Assembly (NCBI GenBank): GCA_026398435.1
Contig: JAPLSW010000057.1
Location: 17,715-81,714 of the forward strand
From: Chlamydiota bacterium
Lineage (GTDB): Bacteria > Chlamydiota > Chlamydiia > Chlamydiales > Rhabdochlamydiaceae
Reading direction: 5' to 3'
DNA: 64,000 bases
Of this stretch, positions 17,527 through 53,252 are shown in pieces. A program made the translations under genes and the position numbers. Below the pieces are notes generated by a model. That model was not told where the DNA came from, ran no database searches, and saw nothing but the letters and a program-made list of their open reading frames with translations. Within the stretch, counting starts at the first letter, position 1, and the number at the start of each line of letters is the position of its first letter.

Positions 17527-17959
17527 CTTCTTGGCCTGCAGCTGCGGTTTCTTTAATCTCAGTCTGGTATATTGCATCAAGTACAGCATTGATAAAAGAG
17601 GCGCTCTCTGCTGTAGAATACTTACGCGTTAGCCTGATTGCTTCAGCAATCGAAACCTTAGGTGGCAAAGAGGAGAGATACAGCATTTCATAAACAGCAA
17701 GCCTCAGCACATTTAGCTCTACTTTCGGAATACGATGAAAATCGTATGACTTAGAAAAGCTGGTAATCTTCGCATCAATCTCTGGCAAATGCCCTTCGAT
17801 CTCTGTTTTCTGTGCTAAAATCTCTCTCACAGCCTTGCGCGTGATGAAAAATTCTTTCATCATAAATTCAGTAACCTCTTCATCATCCACGGCTGAAAAG
17901 TCGTGACTGAAAAGGATTTGAAAAAGAATTTCTCTACTTTTTTGCTGTGATAGTGCCAT
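17495..17959 (-). CDS. nusB: Transcription antitermination factor NusB
   Basis: ...SREILFQILFS...ELNVLRLAVYEMLY...VSIAEAIRLTRKY...FINAVLD is the NusB pattern. Confidence 0.85.
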   Translation of the reverse strand: MALSQQKSREILFQILFSHDFSAVDDEEVTEFMMKEFFITRKAVREILAQKTEIEGHLPEIDAKITSFSKSYDFHRIPKVELNVLRLAVYEMLYLSSLPPKVSIAEAIRLTRKYSTAESASFINAVLDAIYQTEIKETAAAGQEDELSLPALTT

Positions 17960-46648: not shown

Positions 46649-49480
46649 ATGCCAGAACTTGCCAAAGCCTTTGAAGCTAAACTCGTAGAAGACAAGTGGT
46701 ATTCCTTTTGGGAATCCAGAAACTATTTCCAAGCCGATCCCCTTTCTAAAAAACCAGCTTTTAGCCTGGTTATGCCCCCACCGAACGTAACGGGTGTCTT
46801 GCATATGGGACATGCTCTTGTCAATACCTTGCAAGATGTTCTTACTAGATGGAAAAGGATGTCGGGCTTTGAGGTTCTTTGGGTGCCGGGAACAGACCAT
46901 GCAGGTATTGCTACACAAACAGTTGTCGAAAGGAACCTGATTGCACAAACTGGCAAGAGAAGAAAAGACTTTCCAAGAGAAGAGTTTTTAGGTCATGTGT
47001 GGGACTGGAAAGAAAAAAGCCAAGATACCATCTTGCACCAGCTGAAAAAACTCGGCTGCTCGTGCGACTGGTCAAGACTTTGCTTTACCATGGATGATAA
47101 ACGCAATGTAGCTGTTCAAACAGCCTTTAAAAAATTCTATGATGATGGCCTTATTTACCGTGGTGATTATCTAGTCAATTGGGATCCAGTGACACAAACG
47201 GCCTTGGCCGATGATGAAGTAGAACATGAAGAAAAAGACTCATTTTTATGGCACCTACGCTATCCCTTAAAAGATGATCCTAAAAAATATATCGTTGTAG
47301 CAACAACACGTCCAGAAACCATGCTTGGTGATGTGGCAGTCGCTGTTAACCCCTCCGATGAAAGATATAAGGATCTTCTTGGCAAGACACTAATCCTACC
47401 GATCACCAACAGAGAAATCCCTGTTATTGCAGATCATTTTGTAGAGGCAGGCTTTGGAACGGGCGCAGTAAAAATCACACCAGCTCATGACCCGAATGAC
47501 TATGAAATGGGACAAAGACATAATCTCCCTATGATCAACATCATGACACCCGATGGGAAGATCAATGAAACTGGAGGCTCTTTTGCAGGTCTTACCATGC
47601 AAGAGGCTCGTGTTGCAATTGTACAGAAAATGCAGGAGCTGGGACTTGTAGATAAGATCGAGCCCCATAAACTACGTATTGGCCTTTCCTACCGATCAAA
47701 GGCTATCATTGAGCCCTACCTATCCAAACAGTGGTTTGTGAAGATGACAGGCTTTAAAAGCACACTCCGAAGCCTAGTAGAAAAAAAACAAGTAAAGCTC
47801 GTTCCAGAAAGCTGGGAAAACACCTATTTCCACTGGATCGATAATTTACGAGACTGGTGTATCTCTCGCCAGCTGTGGTGGGGCCATAGAATCCCGATCT
47901 GGTACAACATCGAAGATCCTGAAAAAATGATCTGTCATGCAGGCGAGGGCCTCCCTCCAGAGGTAGCTAAAAATCCAGAGGCATGGCGCCAGGATGAAGA
48001 TGTGCTCGACACATGGTTCTCTTCAGCTCTTTGGCCCTTTAGCACAATGGGCTGGCCAGAAAAAACACCTGAGCTTAAGAAATTCTATCCGACATCAACA
48101 CTTATCACCGGCCATGACATCCTCTTTTTCTGGGTAGCTAGAATGGTCCTTATGGGATCTTATGTAATGGACACTCCCCCCTTTGCTGAAACCTTCCTCC
48201 ACGGCCTTATCTACGGAAAGTCGTATTGGAAAACAGGTAAGGACGGAGCTAACTCTTACATTACAGGAGATGATAGGCTCTCCTATGAACTCGGAAAGCC
48301 TTTGCCACCTGGTGTCCAGTTCAAATGGGAAAAAATGTCCAAATCTAAAGGCAATGTCATCGACCCCCTAGAAATCCTCGATTCCTTTGGGACAGATGCA
48401 ATGCGCATGGCTCTATGTGCAAGCGCGACCCAAGCGCGCCAGATAGATTTAGATCGGCGCAAGTTCGAAGAATTTAAAAACTTTGCCAACAAGTTATGGA
48501 ACGGCGCTCGCTTTGTCTTTATGAATATCGACAGTCTAACAGTCGATAGTTTTTCTTCAGGGCTCGATGAGTCGCTCCTAGCTTTGGAAGACAAATGGAT
48601 CCTGTCTCTTCTTAACAAGACGATTAAAGAAGTGAACCTCCATTTAGGAGAGTACTCCTTTGATAAAGCAGCTCTTACTGCCTATGACTTTTTCTGGAAG
48701 GAGCTTTGCGCTTACTATCTAGAGCTCTCCAAGCCCGTCCTCTCCGGAAAATCGGGATCTCCAGAGCAAAGAGAGAATAAGCAAAAGATCTTAAGCATCA
48801 TCTTATGTGCAACGCTCAGACTTCTCCATCCGATGACACCGTTCATCACCGAAGAGCTCTTTGCGTTTATGAAAGAGAAGTTTGGACCCGCCGTCATAAG
48901 TGATAAAGCAGATCCCTACACGAAAGAGGCAATCCTAGCTCTACATGCCAGCTGCTGTATGAACGCTCCCTATCCGGTAGTTATCAAAGAAGCTGACATC
49001 AACCCAGAGATAGAGAAGACTTTTTCCTTTATGGACTCTCTTGTCCATGCAGTAAGAAATATACGAGCTGAGATGCAGCTGCCACCATCTGCAGGAACTG
49101 ATGTATTTATCATTGGAGAGAAAGCAGACCCTAACTGGCTGTGCGCTCTTGAAAGCCGCTCTATCTTAGAGGGCCTCGTAAAAATACAGACCCTTACGAT
49201 CACGGATAAGGCCCCTTCGATGTCTTTTTCTGCGGAAGCAATAGTTGATAGCCTAAAAATTATCGTGCCACTACCTCAGGAAATGAAAGACAAAGAAAAG
49301 CAAAGGCTCGCTAAAGAAAAAGAGAAACTCCTTATCCAAAGTGTCTCTCTTAAGGAAAAGCTTGCGAACCCTGAATTTACCGAGAAAGCACCTGCTGAAG
49401 TTGTAAAGAAACTTTCCTCTCAGCTAGAGCTTCTCGATAAGCAGCTCCAAGAAATAGAAACAAAGTCGGCTATGCTTTAA
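46649..49480 (+). CDS. valS: Valine--tRNA ligase
   Basis: PPPNVTGVLHMGHAL (HIGH), KMSKSKGN and a C-terminal coiled coil. Confidence 0.95.
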   Translation: MPELAKAFEAKLVEDKWYSFWESRNYFQADPLSKKPAFSLVMPPPNVTGVLHMGHALVNTLQDVLTRWKRMSGFEVLWVPGTDHAGIATQTVVERNLIAQTGKRRKDFPREEFLGHVWDWKEKSQDTILHQLKKLGCSCDWSRLCFTMDDKRNVAVQTAFKKFYDDGLIYRGDYLVNWDPVTQTALADDEVEHEEKDSFLWHLRYPLKDDPKKYIVVATTRPETMLGDVAVAVNPSDERYKDLLGKTLILPITNREIPVIADHFVEAGFGTGAVKITPAHDPNDYEMGQRHNLPMINIMTPDGKINETGGSFAGLTMQEARVAIVQKMQELGLVDKIEPHKLRIGLSYRSKAIIEPYLSKQWFVKMTGFKSTLRSLVEKKQVKLVPESWENTYFHWIDNLRDWCISRQLWWGHRIPIWYNIEDPEKMICHAGEGLPPEVAKNPEAWRQDEDVLDTWFSSALWPFSTMGWPEKTPELKKFYPTSTLITGHDILFFWVARMVLMGSYVMDTPPFAETFLHGLIYGKSYWKTGKDGANSYITGDDRLSYELGKPLPPGVQFKWEKMSKSKGNVIDPLEILDSFGTDAMRMALCASATQARQIDLDRRKFEEFKNFANKLWNGARFVFMNIDSLTVDSFSSGLDESLLALEDKWILSLLNKTIKEVNLHLGEYSFDKAALTAYDFFWKELCAYYLELSKPVLSGKSGSPEQRENKQKILSIILCATLRLLHPMTPFITEELFAFMKEKFGPAVISDKADPYTKEAILALHASCCMNAPYPVVIKEADINPEIEKTFSFMDSLVHAVRNIRAEMQLPPSAGTDVFIIGEKADPNWLCALESRSILEGLVKIQTLTITDKAPSMSFSAEAIVDSLKIIVPLPQEMKDKEKQRLAKEKEKLLIQSVSLKEKLANPEFTEKAPAEVVKKLSSQLELLDKQLQEIETKSAML

Positions 49481-49487
49481 AAGGACC

Positions 49488-49534
49488 AAACCTCTAGGAA
49501 TCGCGAAAACGCAATTCCTAGAGGTTTGCTTTTC
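49488..49534 (+). terminator. Rho-independent terminator of valS
   Basis: A 14-bp stem, AAACCTCTAGGAAT / ATTCCTAGAGGTTT, with a 12-nt loop, followed by GCTTTTC. Confidence 0.8.
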
Positions 49535-49595: not shown

Positions 49596-49694
49596 CCGGT
49601 GCTGATACATGTGAATGTAATAAGAGAAGTCTTAGTAGAAACGCAATATTTCGCTCACACAGTAAATATGAGCGATTTCTTAAGCCCTGAATCT
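49596..49694 (+). repeat. ~100-bp direct repeat, left copy (R1)
   Basis: ccggtgctgatacatgtgaatgtaataag...atatttcgctcacacagtaaatatgagcgatttcttaagcc... aligns with 52495-52594 with about 13 mismatches. Confidence 0.85.
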
Positions 49695-49699
49695 ACTCT

Positions 49700-49960
49700 A
49701 TAGCTGTTGATAGCCTAAAAAATATCGCGCTATTACCACAGGAAGTGAAGCAAGTCGAATTATGCCTTAACAATAGACATAGAATAGCACTTTGCTATCA
49801 ATTACTCCGGCCTAAATGCTCAGCTTTTCACATGCGTACAAGTCACCGTGCACTAGAAGTTATTTAAAGAAATTCGTTTATTCTTCCTGCGCATTTCGCA
49901 GTTTAAAGAGCGAATTATGAAAACGCAATCCCTTGATTTTTAGTACTTTTCTCAACTATA
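49700..49960 (+). pseudogene. Decayed duplicate of the valS 3' end and its terminator
   Basis: 49700-49755 aligns with valS 49241-49296 (ATAG..TTGATAGCCTAAAAA.TATCG.GC.A.TACC.CAGGAA.TGAA). 49913-49960 aligns with the terminator and trailer at 49497-49543. Confidence 0.5.
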
Positions 49961-50001
49961 AAACAACCTTTATAATAAAGTATTTTTTATTCTCGCTCAA
50001 T

Positions 50002-50017
50002 TACTACGATTGTAGTA
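50002..50017. promoter_or_regulatory. Operator-like palindrome O1 upstream of the blaI-like gene
   Basis: TACTACGATTGTAGTA, 29 nt upstream of ATG 50046. It contains a TACGnnTGTA core (cop-box / BlaI-box-like). Confidence 0.6.
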
Positions 50018-50045
50018 TTATAGCTATAAATTAGGAGAAACACCC

Positions 50046-50423
50046 ATGTCAAAAAGAGCTTTCGGCGAACTAGAACTTGCCATATTACAGATCTTAAAAA
50101 GTGGAGAACGGAAGTCTGTTTCCGACGTACATAAAGCCCTCGGAGGAGAAGACAAATACACCTCGATTTTAACCGTGCTAAATAGGCTGGTTTTAAAAAA
50201 GCAGCTTCATTCAGAACGTGAAGGGATGAAAAACAGCTACTGGATCCAAGAGTCTAAAACCCAGATCCCCTCTTTTTTAGACCAGTTTAAAAAGAAGATA
50301 TTTGGCGTAAAAACAACATCTCTTGTTAGTTACTTGATTAATTCAGCGGAAGATCTCTCCGATGAAGATTTAAACGAGATGCAAACGATGATAGAAACAG
50401 CTAAAGCCCAAAGAAAAAAATAA
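50046..50423 (+). CDS. BlaI/MecI/CopY-family winged-helix repressor
   Basis: ELELAILQILKSGE.SV.DVHKAL......YTSILTVLNRLVLKKQL.SEREG....Y is the family pattern. There is no C-terminal Cys metal-binding motif. Confidence 0.8.
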   Translation: MSKRAFGELELAILQILKSGERKSVSDVHKALGGEDKYTSILTVLNRLVLKKQLHSEREGMKNSYWIQESKTQIPSFLDQFKKKIFGVKTTSLVSYLINSAEDLSDEDLNEMQTMIETAKAQRKK

Positions 50424-51454
50424 TGACAGAAAGTTTACTACTCATACAAACTTTGCAATTCATTCTGAGCAGCCTTGTGGTCTTTGTCTCAACGGCTTTG
50501 CTCGTAGAGATAAGCATTTTTCTTTTTAAAATTAAAAATAACAGAATACGCACTCTTTTTAGATACGTCCCAATAGTAAAACTCCCTTTTGACCTTATTC
50601 TTTATATATTATCTGCCTGCGCTCACTTTACAAATTTCAATCCATTAAGCTGTCAATCTTATGTAGAAAACATGATTGTGCGTATTTTTCATCTCGATGT
50701 ACAAGTAACCGGGTCGATCTACACAACGCACCCCTTTGCAGAATATCTCTCCAAACACCTTCCAATGCTAGGGCTGCAGATTACAGCTGTGGCAATCGGC
50801 TCGGTGTTGCTTGGCATGATCATCCATAAATTTATTGTCGTGATTAAGTCTTTTACCAAATTGCAAAGCATCTGCGTAGCATCCATTCCCTCTATAAGAA
50901 GAGTAACTAATGAAAGACTTAAGGATCGGCTTTTTAAAAAAAAAGTCACAGTATGTATTTCTAACGAGGTAGTAGTTCCAACTGCTGCGCTTAAGAATTA
51001 TATCTTATTTCCTCAAGAGCAGTATGACACCCTTTCACAAAAAGAATTCGAAGCAATCATAGCTCACGAACTTGAGCATTTATGCTGGCATGATCCTATT
51101 CTTAAGTTTACCTCATCACTAATAGGATCTTTCTTTTGGTGGCTGCCAACGAAGCGCTGGATAAATAAAATTGAAGAAGAACAAGAATATTCAAGCGATG
51201 CAAGCATCTCTCAATATGGACTTGAAAATCACGATCTGGCCTCTGCTGTACTGAAAATCTCTCAAACTATTCACAATAAAAAACAAATGAGCGGACCTCT
51301 TTGTTATCTCACCCATAGCAAACCATTTACTGTACGAAGACTTGAGGAGTTGTTAAATATAAAGCCTGCTCCTCCTCTTAAATTTTATGTAAAACGCAGC
51401 ATTATAGCTGCAACTCTTAGCATAATCCTGCTGATTATATTTAGGATTTGCTGA
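50423..51454 (+). CDS. BlaR1-like M56 membrane metalloprotease without a C-terminal sensor domain
   Basis: Multiple TM helices and the zinc motif AHELEHLCWHD. At 343 aa there is no penicillin-binding-type domain. The start overlaps the blaI-like stop. Confidence 0.75.
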   Translation: MTESLLLIQTLQFILSSLVVFVSTALLVEISIFLFKIKNNRIRTLFRYVPIVKLPFDLILYILSACAHFTNFNPLSCQSYVENMIVRIFHLDVQVTGSIYTTHPFAEYLSKHLPMLGLQITAVAIGSVLLGMIIHKFIVVIKSFTKLQSICVASIPSIRRVTNERLKDRLFKKKVTVCISNEVVVPTAALKNYILFPQEQYDTLSQKEFEAIIAHELEHLCWHDPILKFTSSLIGSFFWWLPTKRWINKIEEEQEYSSDASISQYGLENHDLASAVLKISQTIHNKKQMSGPLCYLTHSKPFTVRRLEELLNIKPAPPLKFYVKRSIIAATLSIILLIIFRIC

Positions 51455-51479
51455 TGAGCTAACCCCTTTTTTATAACAA

Positions 51480-51499
51480 GCTACTACGATCGTAGTAGC
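51480..51499. promoter_or_regulatory. Operator-like palindrome O2 (20-bp perfect)
   Basis: GCTACTACGATCGTAGTAGC, 26 nt after the blaR-like stop. Confidence 0.6.
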
Positions 51500-51561
51500 A
51501 AATAAACCCTCTCTTAATAGCTGTCTTACAGATAGCTAAAGAGAACCCTTACGCCCAAAAA

Positions 51562-51577
51562 TACTACAATTGTAGTA
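51562..51577. promoter_or_regulatory. Operator-like palindrome O3 upstream of the orphan 286-aa gene
   Basis: TACTACAATTGTAGTA contains a perfect TACAnnTGTA core. It lies 19 nt upstream of ATG 51596, with AGGAG in between. Confidence 0.6.
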
Positions 51578-51595
51578 ATAACTACAGGAGATACT

Positions 51596-52456
51596 ATGTC
51601 AGTAGCAAGCACAATAAGAACGTCGGGTTCCGCAGCTGGAATGCCTGAGGCCCACTACACTTCTGATTTAAGTGCAGCCACAAGCATGCTGCCAACTCTT
51701 ACAGAAGCCGTTGTAAAAAGCCTGCTTAATGTAAATCGAGGAGAACCTGGAGCTAACATGACAACAATTGGCCTTGTAATGGCTGTGACAAATAAAGAAG
51801 CCTATATACTCAAAGGTGGTAAATTAGATGCTACAGAAGGTAGAACTACATTCTCCATAGATCTTGAGACAAAGGCTAGTGATCTCTCTAGAATAATAGA
51901 GAGTCCTCCATATTTAGAAATTGAAGCTACATGGGATGATAAAACACTTAGCTCTGGCTCTGGCAGTAATATCCTAGGCGATAACGGCAGATTGATTTTA
52001 GAACATTCTTTGATAGAAATCCCCGCAGTTGAAGCTACAGATGCCCTGCTTGGCTATTATGGAGCGACCTTAATCGAAGAGGGTGACCTCATTGAGTTTC
52101 CAGATAATGAATTCCCTCTTTTTTTTATGGAAGTAGGAGAACGGTATGTTGAAGATACTCTTATGACAGATGCTGGAGGAGGATTTTATTTAGAATACCA
52201 TCATGACAAGCCTCACTTCCATCTTCCCTTAGCAGGAAGTGGACATTATCGCATACCTGATGGGAAAGCTGTTTATACTAAAAAAGGAGCTATCCATTGC
52301 GATGCAGGATTAAAAGGAAAACTTCTCGTAGGCTACACCCTGGCCGAAGATTGTTCTACCGTATTGCTGCAAAATAAAACCAGTAAAAGAGTTGAGGTGA
52401 GGTTTATAGAACCTGCAAAAGCGGCAGGATTCCCTCTCGGGGCTGTTAAAGCATAA
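51596..52456 (+). CDS. Hypothetical 286-aa protein, likely target of the BlaI-like repressor
   Basis: Good RBS (AGGAG 5 nt upstream) and coding-like composition. No signal peptide or TM segment. His-rich patch YHHDKPHFHLPLAGSGHY. Confidence 0.6.
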   Translation: MSVASTIRTSGSAAGMPEAHYTSDLSAATSMLPTLTEAVVKSLLNVNRGEPGANMTTIGLVMAVTNKEAYILKGGKLDATEGRTTFSIDLETKASDLSRIIESPPYLEIEATWDDKTLSSGSGSNILGDNGRLILEHSLIEIPAVEATDALLGYYGATLIEEGDLIEFPDNEFPLFFMEVGERYVEDTLMTDAGGGFYLEYHHDKPHFHLPLAGSGHYRIPDGKAVYTKKGAIHCDAGLKGKLLVGYTLAEDCSTVLLQNKTSKRVEVRFIEPAKAAGFPLGAVKA

Positions 52457-52494: not shown

Positions 52495-52594
52495 CCGGTG
52501 CTAATCCATGTGAATGTACTAAGTGAAGCTTTAGAAGAAACTCAATATTTCGCTCATACCATAAATATGAGCGATTTCTTGAGCCAAGAATCCT
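52495..52594 (+). repeat. ~100-bp direct repeat, right copy (R2)
   Basis: Aligns with 49596-49694. It shares the internal hairpin TCGCTCA-n11-TGAGCGA, with a different loop. Confidence 0.85.
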
Positions 52595-52598
52595 GAAC

Positions 52599-53252
52599 CT
52601 AAGAATGCCCAGCACAGCGAATTAGCATCCCCTCTAATTCGCTATAAGCTGCAGGAGTTAGAACTGGCTTTGCTTTTTTGAGAAAATCAAAAGCCCGATT
52701 AAGAGAGCTCCAAGCAATATCCTCATATTCTTTAAATTTTGCTGAGTCCTTAGGATAACTTTCTGATAAACGAAGTACTTGCTCGAAAATTTCACATTCA
52801 ACTGCAATTCTCACACTTGGAATGCTTATTATACTAACCTTAACCAGAGCCGCAATAACTCTTCCTTCTGCTAAATCAGCACTTACCTGACGAGAATAAT
52901 TTAACGCATGAAGCTCTTCATGCTCAGAAGAACTACCATCCAAACGATCTTCTTCTGCAATATATTGTAATAACACAGGAGAGGGAGATCTTGGAACGGG
53001 ACATGAAGAGAATTCTACAGCAGAATCTCTATGTCTTGATGGAGATACTGATATAAATCTATCTGTTAAAGCAACCAGGGAACTGGAACTATCACTCGAG
53101 GCACCGTGTAACATACTGGTTGCCGCCCCCTTAAAAGGGGGAATTTCTCGTAAGAAGGACATAGGATCCTTTGTGGATGGAGCCGTATTTTTTTGTACTG
53201 CCTCTACCGGAATTAAACTGCCGCCCTTTTTTGAAATCACAGAAAAGCTCAT
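52599..53252 (-). CDS. Hypothetical protein (orphan, candidate effector)
   Basis: 217-aa ORF with an AT-rich upstream region, a Ser-rich N-terminal half and a helical C-terminal half. Confidence 0.5.
   Translation of the reverse strand: MSFSVISKKGGSLIPVEAVQKNTAPSTKDPMSFLREIPPFKGAATSMLHGASSDSSSSLVALTDRFISVSPSRHRDSAVEFSSCPVPRSPSPVLLQYIAEEDRLDGSSSEHEELHALNYSRQVSADLAEGRVIAALVKVSIISIPSVRIAVECEIFEQVLRLSESYPKDSAKFKEYEDIAWSSLNRAFDFLKKAKPVLTPAAYSELEGMLIRCAGHS

Follow-up and report, generated by a model that had tools for sequence, protein, structure and literature searches.

A probable autoregulated BlaI/BlaR-family switch of a minimal, sensor-less type in environmental Chlamydiota

In a 64,000-nucleotide stretch of DNA from a member of the Rhabdochlamydiaceae (Chlamydiota; assembly GCA_026398435.1, contig JAPLSW010000057.1, forward-strand positions 17,715 to 81,714; hereafter the window, whose first letter is position 1), a gene for a BlaI-like repressor is followed by a gene for a BlaR1-type protease of family M56 and then by a gene of an unannotated family. 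Three copies of a 16-bp dyad, defined here as TACTAC-N4-GTAGTA, accompany these genes, and we consider it likely that the whole forms an autoregulated switch of the BlaI/BlaR family, of a minimal type that lacks a sensor domain. The predicted operators and genes are:

50002-50017, no strand: O1, operator in the blaI promoter, TACTACGATTGTAGTA, exact dyad (predicted operator)
50046-50423, + strand: blaI-like repressor gene, 125 residues, winged helix plus C-terminal helical domain (PF03965, 6.6e-17)
50423-51454, + strand: gene for an M56 (BlaR1-type) membrane zinc protease, 343 residues (PF05569, 6.7e-13)
51482-51497 (core), no strand: O2, distal operator of the downstream gene, TACTACGATCGTAGTA, exact dyad (predicted)
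51562-51577, no strand: O3, proximal operator of the downstream gene, TACTACAATTGTAGTA, exact dyad (predicted)
51596-52456, + strand: predicted controlled gene, 286 residues, unannotated family, with motifs YLEYHHDxPHFH and GAIHCD

The original prediction, made from the letters of the window, had named three palindromes, and all of them lie where it had placed them, in front of the two transcription units. O1 stands 29 nucleotides (nt) ahead of the ATG at 50046, the core of O2 is embedded in a perfect 20-bp palindrome (51480-51499) that begins 26 nt past the M56 stop codon, and O3, which is followed by AGGAG, stands 18 nt ahead of the ATG at 51596. These three are the only exact matches to the dyad in the window, compared with none in 100 dinucleotide-preserving shuffles, and relaxing the search to two or fewer mismatches yielded two more matches, both dissimilar to O1-O3. 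The match of their cores to TACAnnTGTA, which had also been claimed, is perfect in O3 but has one mismatch in O1 and two in O2; it does stand for the family consensus, as described below. An RNA-family scan of the window returned only two transfer RNAs at gathering score, neither of them near the blaI-M56 locus.

The position of the dyad relative to genes is conserved well beyond the window. We used the downstream gene family to collect 21 genome loci and the repressor family to collect 80 metagenome loci, and counted sites with at most one mismatch over the approximately 90 loci that contain blaI (494.5 kb; chlamydial wherever the source is named). The 149 sites found are distributed as follows:

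Within 130 bp upstream of blaI: 81 sites
Within 400 bp past the blaI-M56 module: 63 sites
Elsewhere: 5 sites

A total of 144 sites thus occupy one of two gene-relative places, before blaI or just past blaI-M56, and four of the five others are tandem pairs before operons directly upstream of blaI, in loci L028 and L044. A site upstream of blaI was present in 78 of the 84 related loci with sufficient upstream sequence, and the location of O2 just after the M56 stop codon also repeats in related loci. Chlamydial genomes encoding proteins 42-57% identical to those of the window retain the order blaI-M56-downstream gene, with one copy of the dyad ahead of blaI and one to three copies ahead of the downstream gene, and the genes flanking this cassette vary by locus although the dyad positions recur. 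With three exact copies in the window and 5 of 149 sites elsewhere across related loci, the palindrome is not scattered over the sequence covered, and its confinement to two gene-relative positions rules out a dispersed repeat such as a repetitive extragenic palindromic (REP) element or a miniature inverted-repeat transposable element (MITE).

Conservation within the dyad is likewise uneven. The consensus of the 131 unique related sites is TACTACAnnTGTAGTA, in which positions 4-6 (TAC) and 11-13 (GTA) are invariant (131 of 131), 77% of the sites have A at position 7 and 87% have T at position 10, and the two central bases are free; the arms are conserved, and the spacer and flanks vary. Because this consensus contains TACAnnTGTA, the link to the BlaI/MecI/CopY box holds for the family. 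In the L009/L035 lineage, both arms have shifted together to TATTAC/GTAATA at every site of the locus, a concerted change such as would be expected if the regulator and its sites had co-evolved.

The surroundings of the dyad before blaI suggest how an operator might act there. Among 75 distinct sites upstream of blaI, 62 have TTG 9-10 nt ahead of the operator and 71 have T 4 nt past it, a spacing by which the operator would occupy the spacer of a TTGnnn-17/18 nt-TAnnnT promoter and supply the TA of its -10 element. This predicted location, between the -35 and -10 of the repressor gene's own promoter, is the one expected for a dyad of the BlaI/MecI/CopY family, and in the window it places the following element:

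50016-50021, + strand: inferred -10 hexamer TATTAT, overlapping the last two bases of O1 by its first two

Before the downstream gene, a subset of the operators has a T-run or TTGAAA-like element 5-6 nt ahead. The distance from the proximal operator to the downstream start codon in related loci ranges from a few to about 70 nt and is mostly 9-23 nt, and GGAG occurs within 25 nt after the proximal operator at 28 of 56 sites.

Palindromes that begin 26 nt after a stop codon, as O2 does, may also be read as RNA, and the dyads, or at least O2, could act as hairpins, with O2 as a terminator or attenuator that ends the blaI-M56 transcript. O2 does fold as an RNA hairpin with an 8-bp stem in the predicted RNA, and a simple scan marks it as terminator-like on the minus strand. 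However, the + strand has no T-run after it, there is no gene for a minus-strand terminator to end, and the same sequence stands in the blaI promoter, where a terminator would be senseless. Moreover, the arms are kept as sequence (the invariant TAC and GTA) and not for pairing alone, with the 4-nt spacer free, and a better candidate for the end of the transcript lies between O2 and O3:

51510-51544, + strand: stem-loop of 35 nt (RNA fold of 51440-51600, z = -5.1)

This stem-loop, which is also not followed by a T-run, may mark the end of the blaI-M56 transcript. The missing T-run on the coding strand and the occurrence of the same sequence in promoters rule out intrinsic termination as the main role of O2, and we consider the hairpin explanation as a whole quite improbable, though O2 might have a dual role, as an operator and additionally as a roadblock or hairpin. 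Judging by these comparisons of sequence, a protein-binding operator is by far the best reading of the dyads.

The protein that would bind them matches PF03965 (Penicillinase_R) with 62.4 bits against a cut-off of 22.6, its residues 7-117 aligning to profile positions 2-114 of 115. A single-sequence search of the PDB with the repressor found nothing; a search with a profile of its orthologues reached BlaI of Mycobacterium tuberculosis (2g9w, 6e-6), the nearest solved relative, and the same profile aligned MecI over its full length (0.03), with LVLNFVEKEDLSQDEI versus LVSYLINSAEDLSDEDL around the MecI cleavage site. Every relative of the repressor whose source is named in the homologue search belongs to the Chlamydiae or Parachlamydiaceae. 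The ATG of the M56 gene overlaps the blaI stop codon at 50423, which implies co-translation, and this coupling of blaI and M56 is found in most of the approximately 90 related loci.

The best NCBIfam match of the repressor is the CopY/TcrY model (6.4e-9), far under its cut-off (36 versus 122 bits), and the operator resembles the CopY box, O3 agreeing with the extended CopY consensus RNYKACANNYGTMRNY at 14 of 16 positions in our own comparison with PMC7253601. Taken with one related locus that has operators before an MbnB/TglH/ChrH peptide-modification cluster, these matches would suit a CopY-type copper or zinc sensor, with the M56 protein doing an unrelated job. However, the repressor contains no cysteine at all and its chlamydial orthologues no conserved one, so there is no CxC cluster of the CopY type: the C-terminal CxCxxxxCxC metal site is absent, exactly as had been predicted. 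In addition, the gene is translationally coupled to that of the M56 protease in almost every locus. The lack of cysteine rules out a CopY-type metal sensor, and the alternative as a whole deserves hardly any credence.

The M56 protein scores 48.9 bits against PF05569 (Peptidase_M56; cut-off 31) and has HELEH at residues 215-219. Residues H215, E216, H219, E255 and D259, which make up HExxH plus ExxxD, are invariant in 22 homologues of 26-83% identity, and the catalytic Glu and His thus hold on alignment. An AlphaFold model (pLDDT, the predicted local distance difference test, 80.6) places long helices at residues 2-34, 40-66, 115-153 and 319-342; the chain stops at 343, leaving nothing beyond the fourth membrane helix and no penicillin-binding domain, in agreement with the sensor-less, HELEH-bearing protein of 343 residues described originally. 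Because the M56 homologues are 300-357 residues long, the protein of the window is typical of its clade in being short. The top Foldseek matches are structures of Staphylococcus aureus BlaR1 (8exp, 8exq, 8exs and 8exr; E 5.6e-5, probability 1.0), with moderate TM-scores of about 0.4-0.5 and ZMPSTE24 as the next-ranked match, and the modelled arrangement of membrane helices around a cytoplasmic protease domain fits the BlaR1 fold. The NCBIfam BlaR1 model (585 positions) was matched only at 104-303, with 30.5 bits against a cut-off of 400.

One loop of the M56 protein is predicted to be extracytoplasmic (residues 67-114, window ~50621-50764); it spans roughly 45 residues and is poorly modelled. 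Within it, Asn73 is invariant and Pro-x-x-Cys mostly conserved (NPLSC), and many homologues have a second Cys three residues on. On the model, this loop is the sole candidate for a sensing surface outside the membrane.

Starting from the gene families, catalytic motifs, fold, synteny and position-specific conservation of the dyad, we infer DNA binding, repression, cleavage of the repressor and a signal, combined as follows. A dimer of the 125-residue winged-helix repressor would bind the 16-bp dyad TACTAC-N4-GTAGTA. At O1, which would fill the spacer of the blaI-M56 promoter and provide the first two bases of its -10, the bound repressor would exclude RNA polymerase, and the blaI-M56 operon would thereby repress itself; O2 and O3, ahead of the next gene, would hold that gene off. 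The M56 protein would be a membrane zinc protease of four helices whose active site, made up of HELEH and ExxxD, faces the cytoplasm. A cue perceived by its membrane helices or by its ~45-residue loop would lead to cleavage of the repressor in the C-terminal dimerisation region, and cleavage would derepress both transcription units, the output in this genome being a protein of ~290 residues.

Several observations weigh against this scheme, the first of them at the promoters. The -35 position at O1 is weak in the window (CTCGCT), and a better promoter match, TTCTCA-16-TATAAT, lies at 49949-49976; if that promoter is used, O1 would be a roadblock downstream of the start site. No promoter could be defined for the downstream gene, where no consistent -10 was found, and the -10 register of the blaI type is missing there (T at +4 in 9 of 56 sites). 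Operator-bearing target genes also occur without an adjacent protease (L007) or without both regulators (L006). With the protease as query, a single-sequence search of the PDB found nothing and a small profile retrieved only minigluzincins and HtpX; BlaR1 was reached through Pfam, NCBIfam and the comparison of folds, and not by sequence search of the PDB. Apart from the one poorly modelled loop, the protease lacks any extracytoplasmic domain. Finally, where the MecI scissile region reads LVLN/FVEKEDLSQDEI (the slash marks the cleaved bond), the chlamydial repressor reads LVSY/LINSAEDLSDEDL: the helix is preserved, yet Ser-Tyr/Leu-Ile takes the position of the Asn-Phe scissile bond of MecI and BlaI, and cleavage of the repressor at that spot is consequently not assured.

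With the canonical Asn-Phe site not conserved, no sensor domain on the M56 protein, and a locus (L007) that keeps blaI, operators and target without an adjacent M56 gene, the repressor might bind the dyads without being cleaved by M56, which would then have another substrate or leave derepression to another route (for example, membrane sequestration, dilution or a protease encoded elsewhere). However, catalytic residues that are invariant in 22 diverged homologues argue, on sequence grounds, for an active protease, the coupling of blaI to M56 is near-universal in the clade, and the sequence surrounding the cleavage site, the scissile pair aside, closely follows that of MecI. Pairing of this kind is also general, since 96% of the roughly 15,000 M56 proteins in a 2026 survey are encoded near a BlaI-like gene (PMC13492132). 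We consider a switch without cleavage unlikely, and a proteolytic switch of the BlaI/BlaR family the probable arrangement.

Some loci depart from it. In L007 (5249-6789), blaI, operators and target are present and there is no M56 gene; in L006 (1823-2806), operators and target have no regulators within 1.9 kb; in L004 (4388-5766), blaI and M56 are frameshifted, possibly through sequencing errors; and L023 (5341-6159) holds a truncated remnant. The cassette decays or varies in these lineages. No second, tandem blaI-M56 module was found in the fetched loci.

The gene behind O3 does not encode a beta-lactamase, in keeping with the original prediction: its 286-residue product belongs to an unannotated family of proteins of ~290 residues, and searches of Pfam and NCBIfam matched it to no family. 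Most of its 88 close homologues are chlamydial, the others coming from Entotheonella, Endozoicomonadaceae, Kistimonas, Legionellales and a metagenome-assembled genome of Dehalococcoidia. In the non-chlamydial genomes the gene stands without the regulators and without the dyad, among unrelated housekeeping genes (Kistimonas, Endozoicomonas, Legionellales and Entotheonella); in 10 chlamydial loci it follows blaI-M56 and operators. An exhaustive profile search extended the family to at least 551 clusters at 50% identity, with no Pfam entry. In other organisms, members are fused to tandem cyclic-nucleotide-binding domains, an NhaC-type Na+/H+ antiporter, ankyrin repeats or a PH domain (proteins P0195, P0206, P0211, P0263, P0293, P0259, P0274 and P0328).

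Invariant residues of this family include E200, D204, H207, H209, H234 and D236. The structure model of the 286-residue protein is confident (pLDDT 88; predicted template modelling score 0.85), and a Foldseek search of the PDB and BFVD returned nothing below E 0.06; the weak top matches are MPnS, cupins and TET, with cupin or double-stranded beta-helix folds (best E 0.06), and 3 of 41 homologues have a weak Cupin_2 match (best 0.045). A match of the family profile to a PDB sequence was dismissed as a spurious His-tag match. The conserved H-x-D ... H residues are compatible with a cupin or double-stranded beta-helix fold, and our guess is that the protein may be a metal-dependent enzyme, possibly of that fold. 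The window's copy of the gene has an in-frame 51-bp deletion at ~52249 relative to locus L001 (4396-4446) and is otherwise 100% identical to it; missing are 17 residues that the family conserves, LLAKWNIDNTKLQITAF, the full-length form in L001 having 303 residues. The deletion could reflect variation between strains, a disabled copy or an artefact of assembly.

In most of the metagenome loci, a different gene follows the operator behind M56:

8 loci: ~150-residue proteins with signal peptides
4 loci: ~348-residue membrane proteins
3 loci: ~212-residue membrane proteins
Single cases: SBP_bac_3, Pyr_redox_2, UDP-glucose dehydrogenase, 2OG-Fe(II) oxygenase and rhodanese
Further single cases: HbpS-like, EamA, FolB and WD40 proteins

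Because the output genes differ, the conserved unit is operator-blaI-M56-operator, and the output is exchangeable. Locus L044 (1091-3225) has two operators before a 696-residue open reading frame (ORF) that lies upstream of blaI and has no Pfam match, an arrangement which indicates that the regulated gene can sit on either side of the regulator pair. In L028 (909-3958), two operators are followed by a 51-residue ORF ending in GGCGCC, an MbnB/TglH/ChrH enzyme (PF05114, 1e-87), a DUF2063 protein, an FAD-binding oxidase and then blaI-M56, which looks, from its gene content, like a ribosomal-peptide cluster under control of the BlaI type.

We offer only tentatively a broader proposal, that blaI-M56 and its operators form a portable regulatory cassette, carried by environmental Chlamydiota, in which the output gene is replaced from lineage to lineage. 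The genes at the output position include some for membrane proteins whose paired hydrophobic segments recall inclusion-membrane proteins, and one for a thioredoxin-reductase-like protein. In this proposal, M56 would report an envelope or developmental-stage cue (for instance, periplasmic redox state or metal) through the N-P-x-x-C loop; and the system would time the production of host-interaction or envelope proteins during the chlamydial cycle. If this were true, a new enzyme domain would have the 286-residue protein as its first member.

In the window, the cassette follows valS, which ends at 49480 and is succeeded by the three co-directional ORFs (50046-52456). Directly past the valS stop codon lies an inverted repeat (49487-49528; 19-nt arms, 95% complementary, with a 4-nt loop) that is probably the valS terminator. 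An imperfect direct repeat of 98 nt (86% identical), with two copies only in the 64-kb window, brackets the blaI-M56-target cassette at 49596-49693 and 52495-52592; a terminator-like hairpin was flagged in the right copy (52550-52574), and homologous sequence is present in the left. These repeats, like the change of neighbours that the cassette shows between genomes, may be the trace of an insertion or a duplication. A serine-rich protein of 217 residues without a Pfam or NCBIfam match is encoded by an ORF that converges on the target gene (52599-53252, - strand).

Like the BlaI/BlaR1 and MecI/MecR1 systems of S. aureus and Bacillus licheniformis, the chlamydial pair combines the repressor fold with an M56 protein bearing HExxH and ExxxD, and both share (predicted, in the chlamydial case) autoregulation through TACA/TGTA dyads and more than one operator per regulated region. 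Unlike them, it has no penicillin-binding sensor, no beta-lactamase or PBP2a target and no Asn-Phe site, and its genes are co-directional with the target, whereas those of BlaI/BlaR1 and MecI/MecR1 are divergent from it. The M. tuberculosis BlaI/BlaR pair (Rv1846c/Rv1845c) and that of Mycobacterium abscessus also have a minimal BlaR without a sensor domain; they differ in the organisms concerned and in the mycobacterial BlaI regulon, which includes blaC and ATP-synthase-linked genes. CopY/CopR regulators share the winged-helix family and the operator class, but work without a partner protease and carry a CxC metal site at the C-terminus, in contrast to the cysteine-free chlamydial repressor.

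Among BlaR proteins, those without a sensor form the majority. In the 2026 survey, only ~6% of M56 proteins had a transpeptidase (penicillin-binding) domain, and the commonest architecture had no identifiable C-terminal domain (PMC13492132). Clostridioides difficile CenIR (Kurtz et al., J Bacteriol 2026), in which cenI is cdr_0472 and cenR, for a sensor-less M56 protein, is cdr_0473, has been documented by experiment, and the most strongly induced gene of its regulon (~500-fold) is cdr_0474, the next locus number after cenR (PMC13492132). It resembles the chlamydial pair in joining a BlaI-like repressor to an M56 protein without a transpeptidase domain, and in that the function of the top-induced gene and the signal are unknown. 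However, CenR has an extracellular C-terminal tail of ~125 residues past the fourth helix, where the chlamydial protein stops, and CenIR is essential, belongs to a Gram-positive organism, and controls a regulon of ~12 genes with unrelated target proteins; a term search of the text of PMC13492132 turned up no CenI binding motif in the portions it covered. Further sensor-less pairs are the BlaIR of M. tuberculosis and M. abscessus and PvmSR of Pseudomonas aeruginosa (PMC13492132; bioRxiv 10.64898/2026.08.03.742534). PvmSR likewise comprises a BlaI-like protein and a sensor-less M56 protein in a Gram-negative bacterium, with functions other than beta-lactam resistance, but has the protease gene first, lies on a genomic island, governs a virulence and metabolism regulon and has no operator defined (bioRxiv 10.64898/2026.08.03.742534).

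With its sensor-less M56 protein, BlaI-like gene and predicted non-beta-lactamase targets, the chlamydial pair belongs to the non-canonical BlaIR category as defined in PMC13492132. A search for chlamydial BlaI or M56 in the literature collection consulted found no paper, and the circuit is, as the original prediction held, uncharacterised in Chlamydiae; it is not, however, a new kind of circuit, because the sensor-less M56 is the commonest architecture and has been studied in CenIR and other pairs. The chlamydial switch is of a known type and introduces no new regulatory principle. What sets its M56 protein apart is the complete lack of an extracytoplasmic tail, and the phylum of its host.

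Few pairs of transcription factor and operator have been defined for environmental chlamydiae, in which genetic manipulation is hard. Here, a repressor, its predicted 16-bp operator and the likely direct targets can be read from the sequence of approximately 90 loci, providing a testable regulon, and so compact a repressor/operator pair could become a genetic tool. The switch extends the recent view of BlaI/BlaR systems as general, envelope-linked switches and not sensors of beta-lactams; in a host-associated phylum of Gram-negative bacteria, such a system would be reduced to an extreme, without any extracytoplasmic domain. The switch also flags an unannotated domain family of at least 551 clusters as a predicted regulated output.

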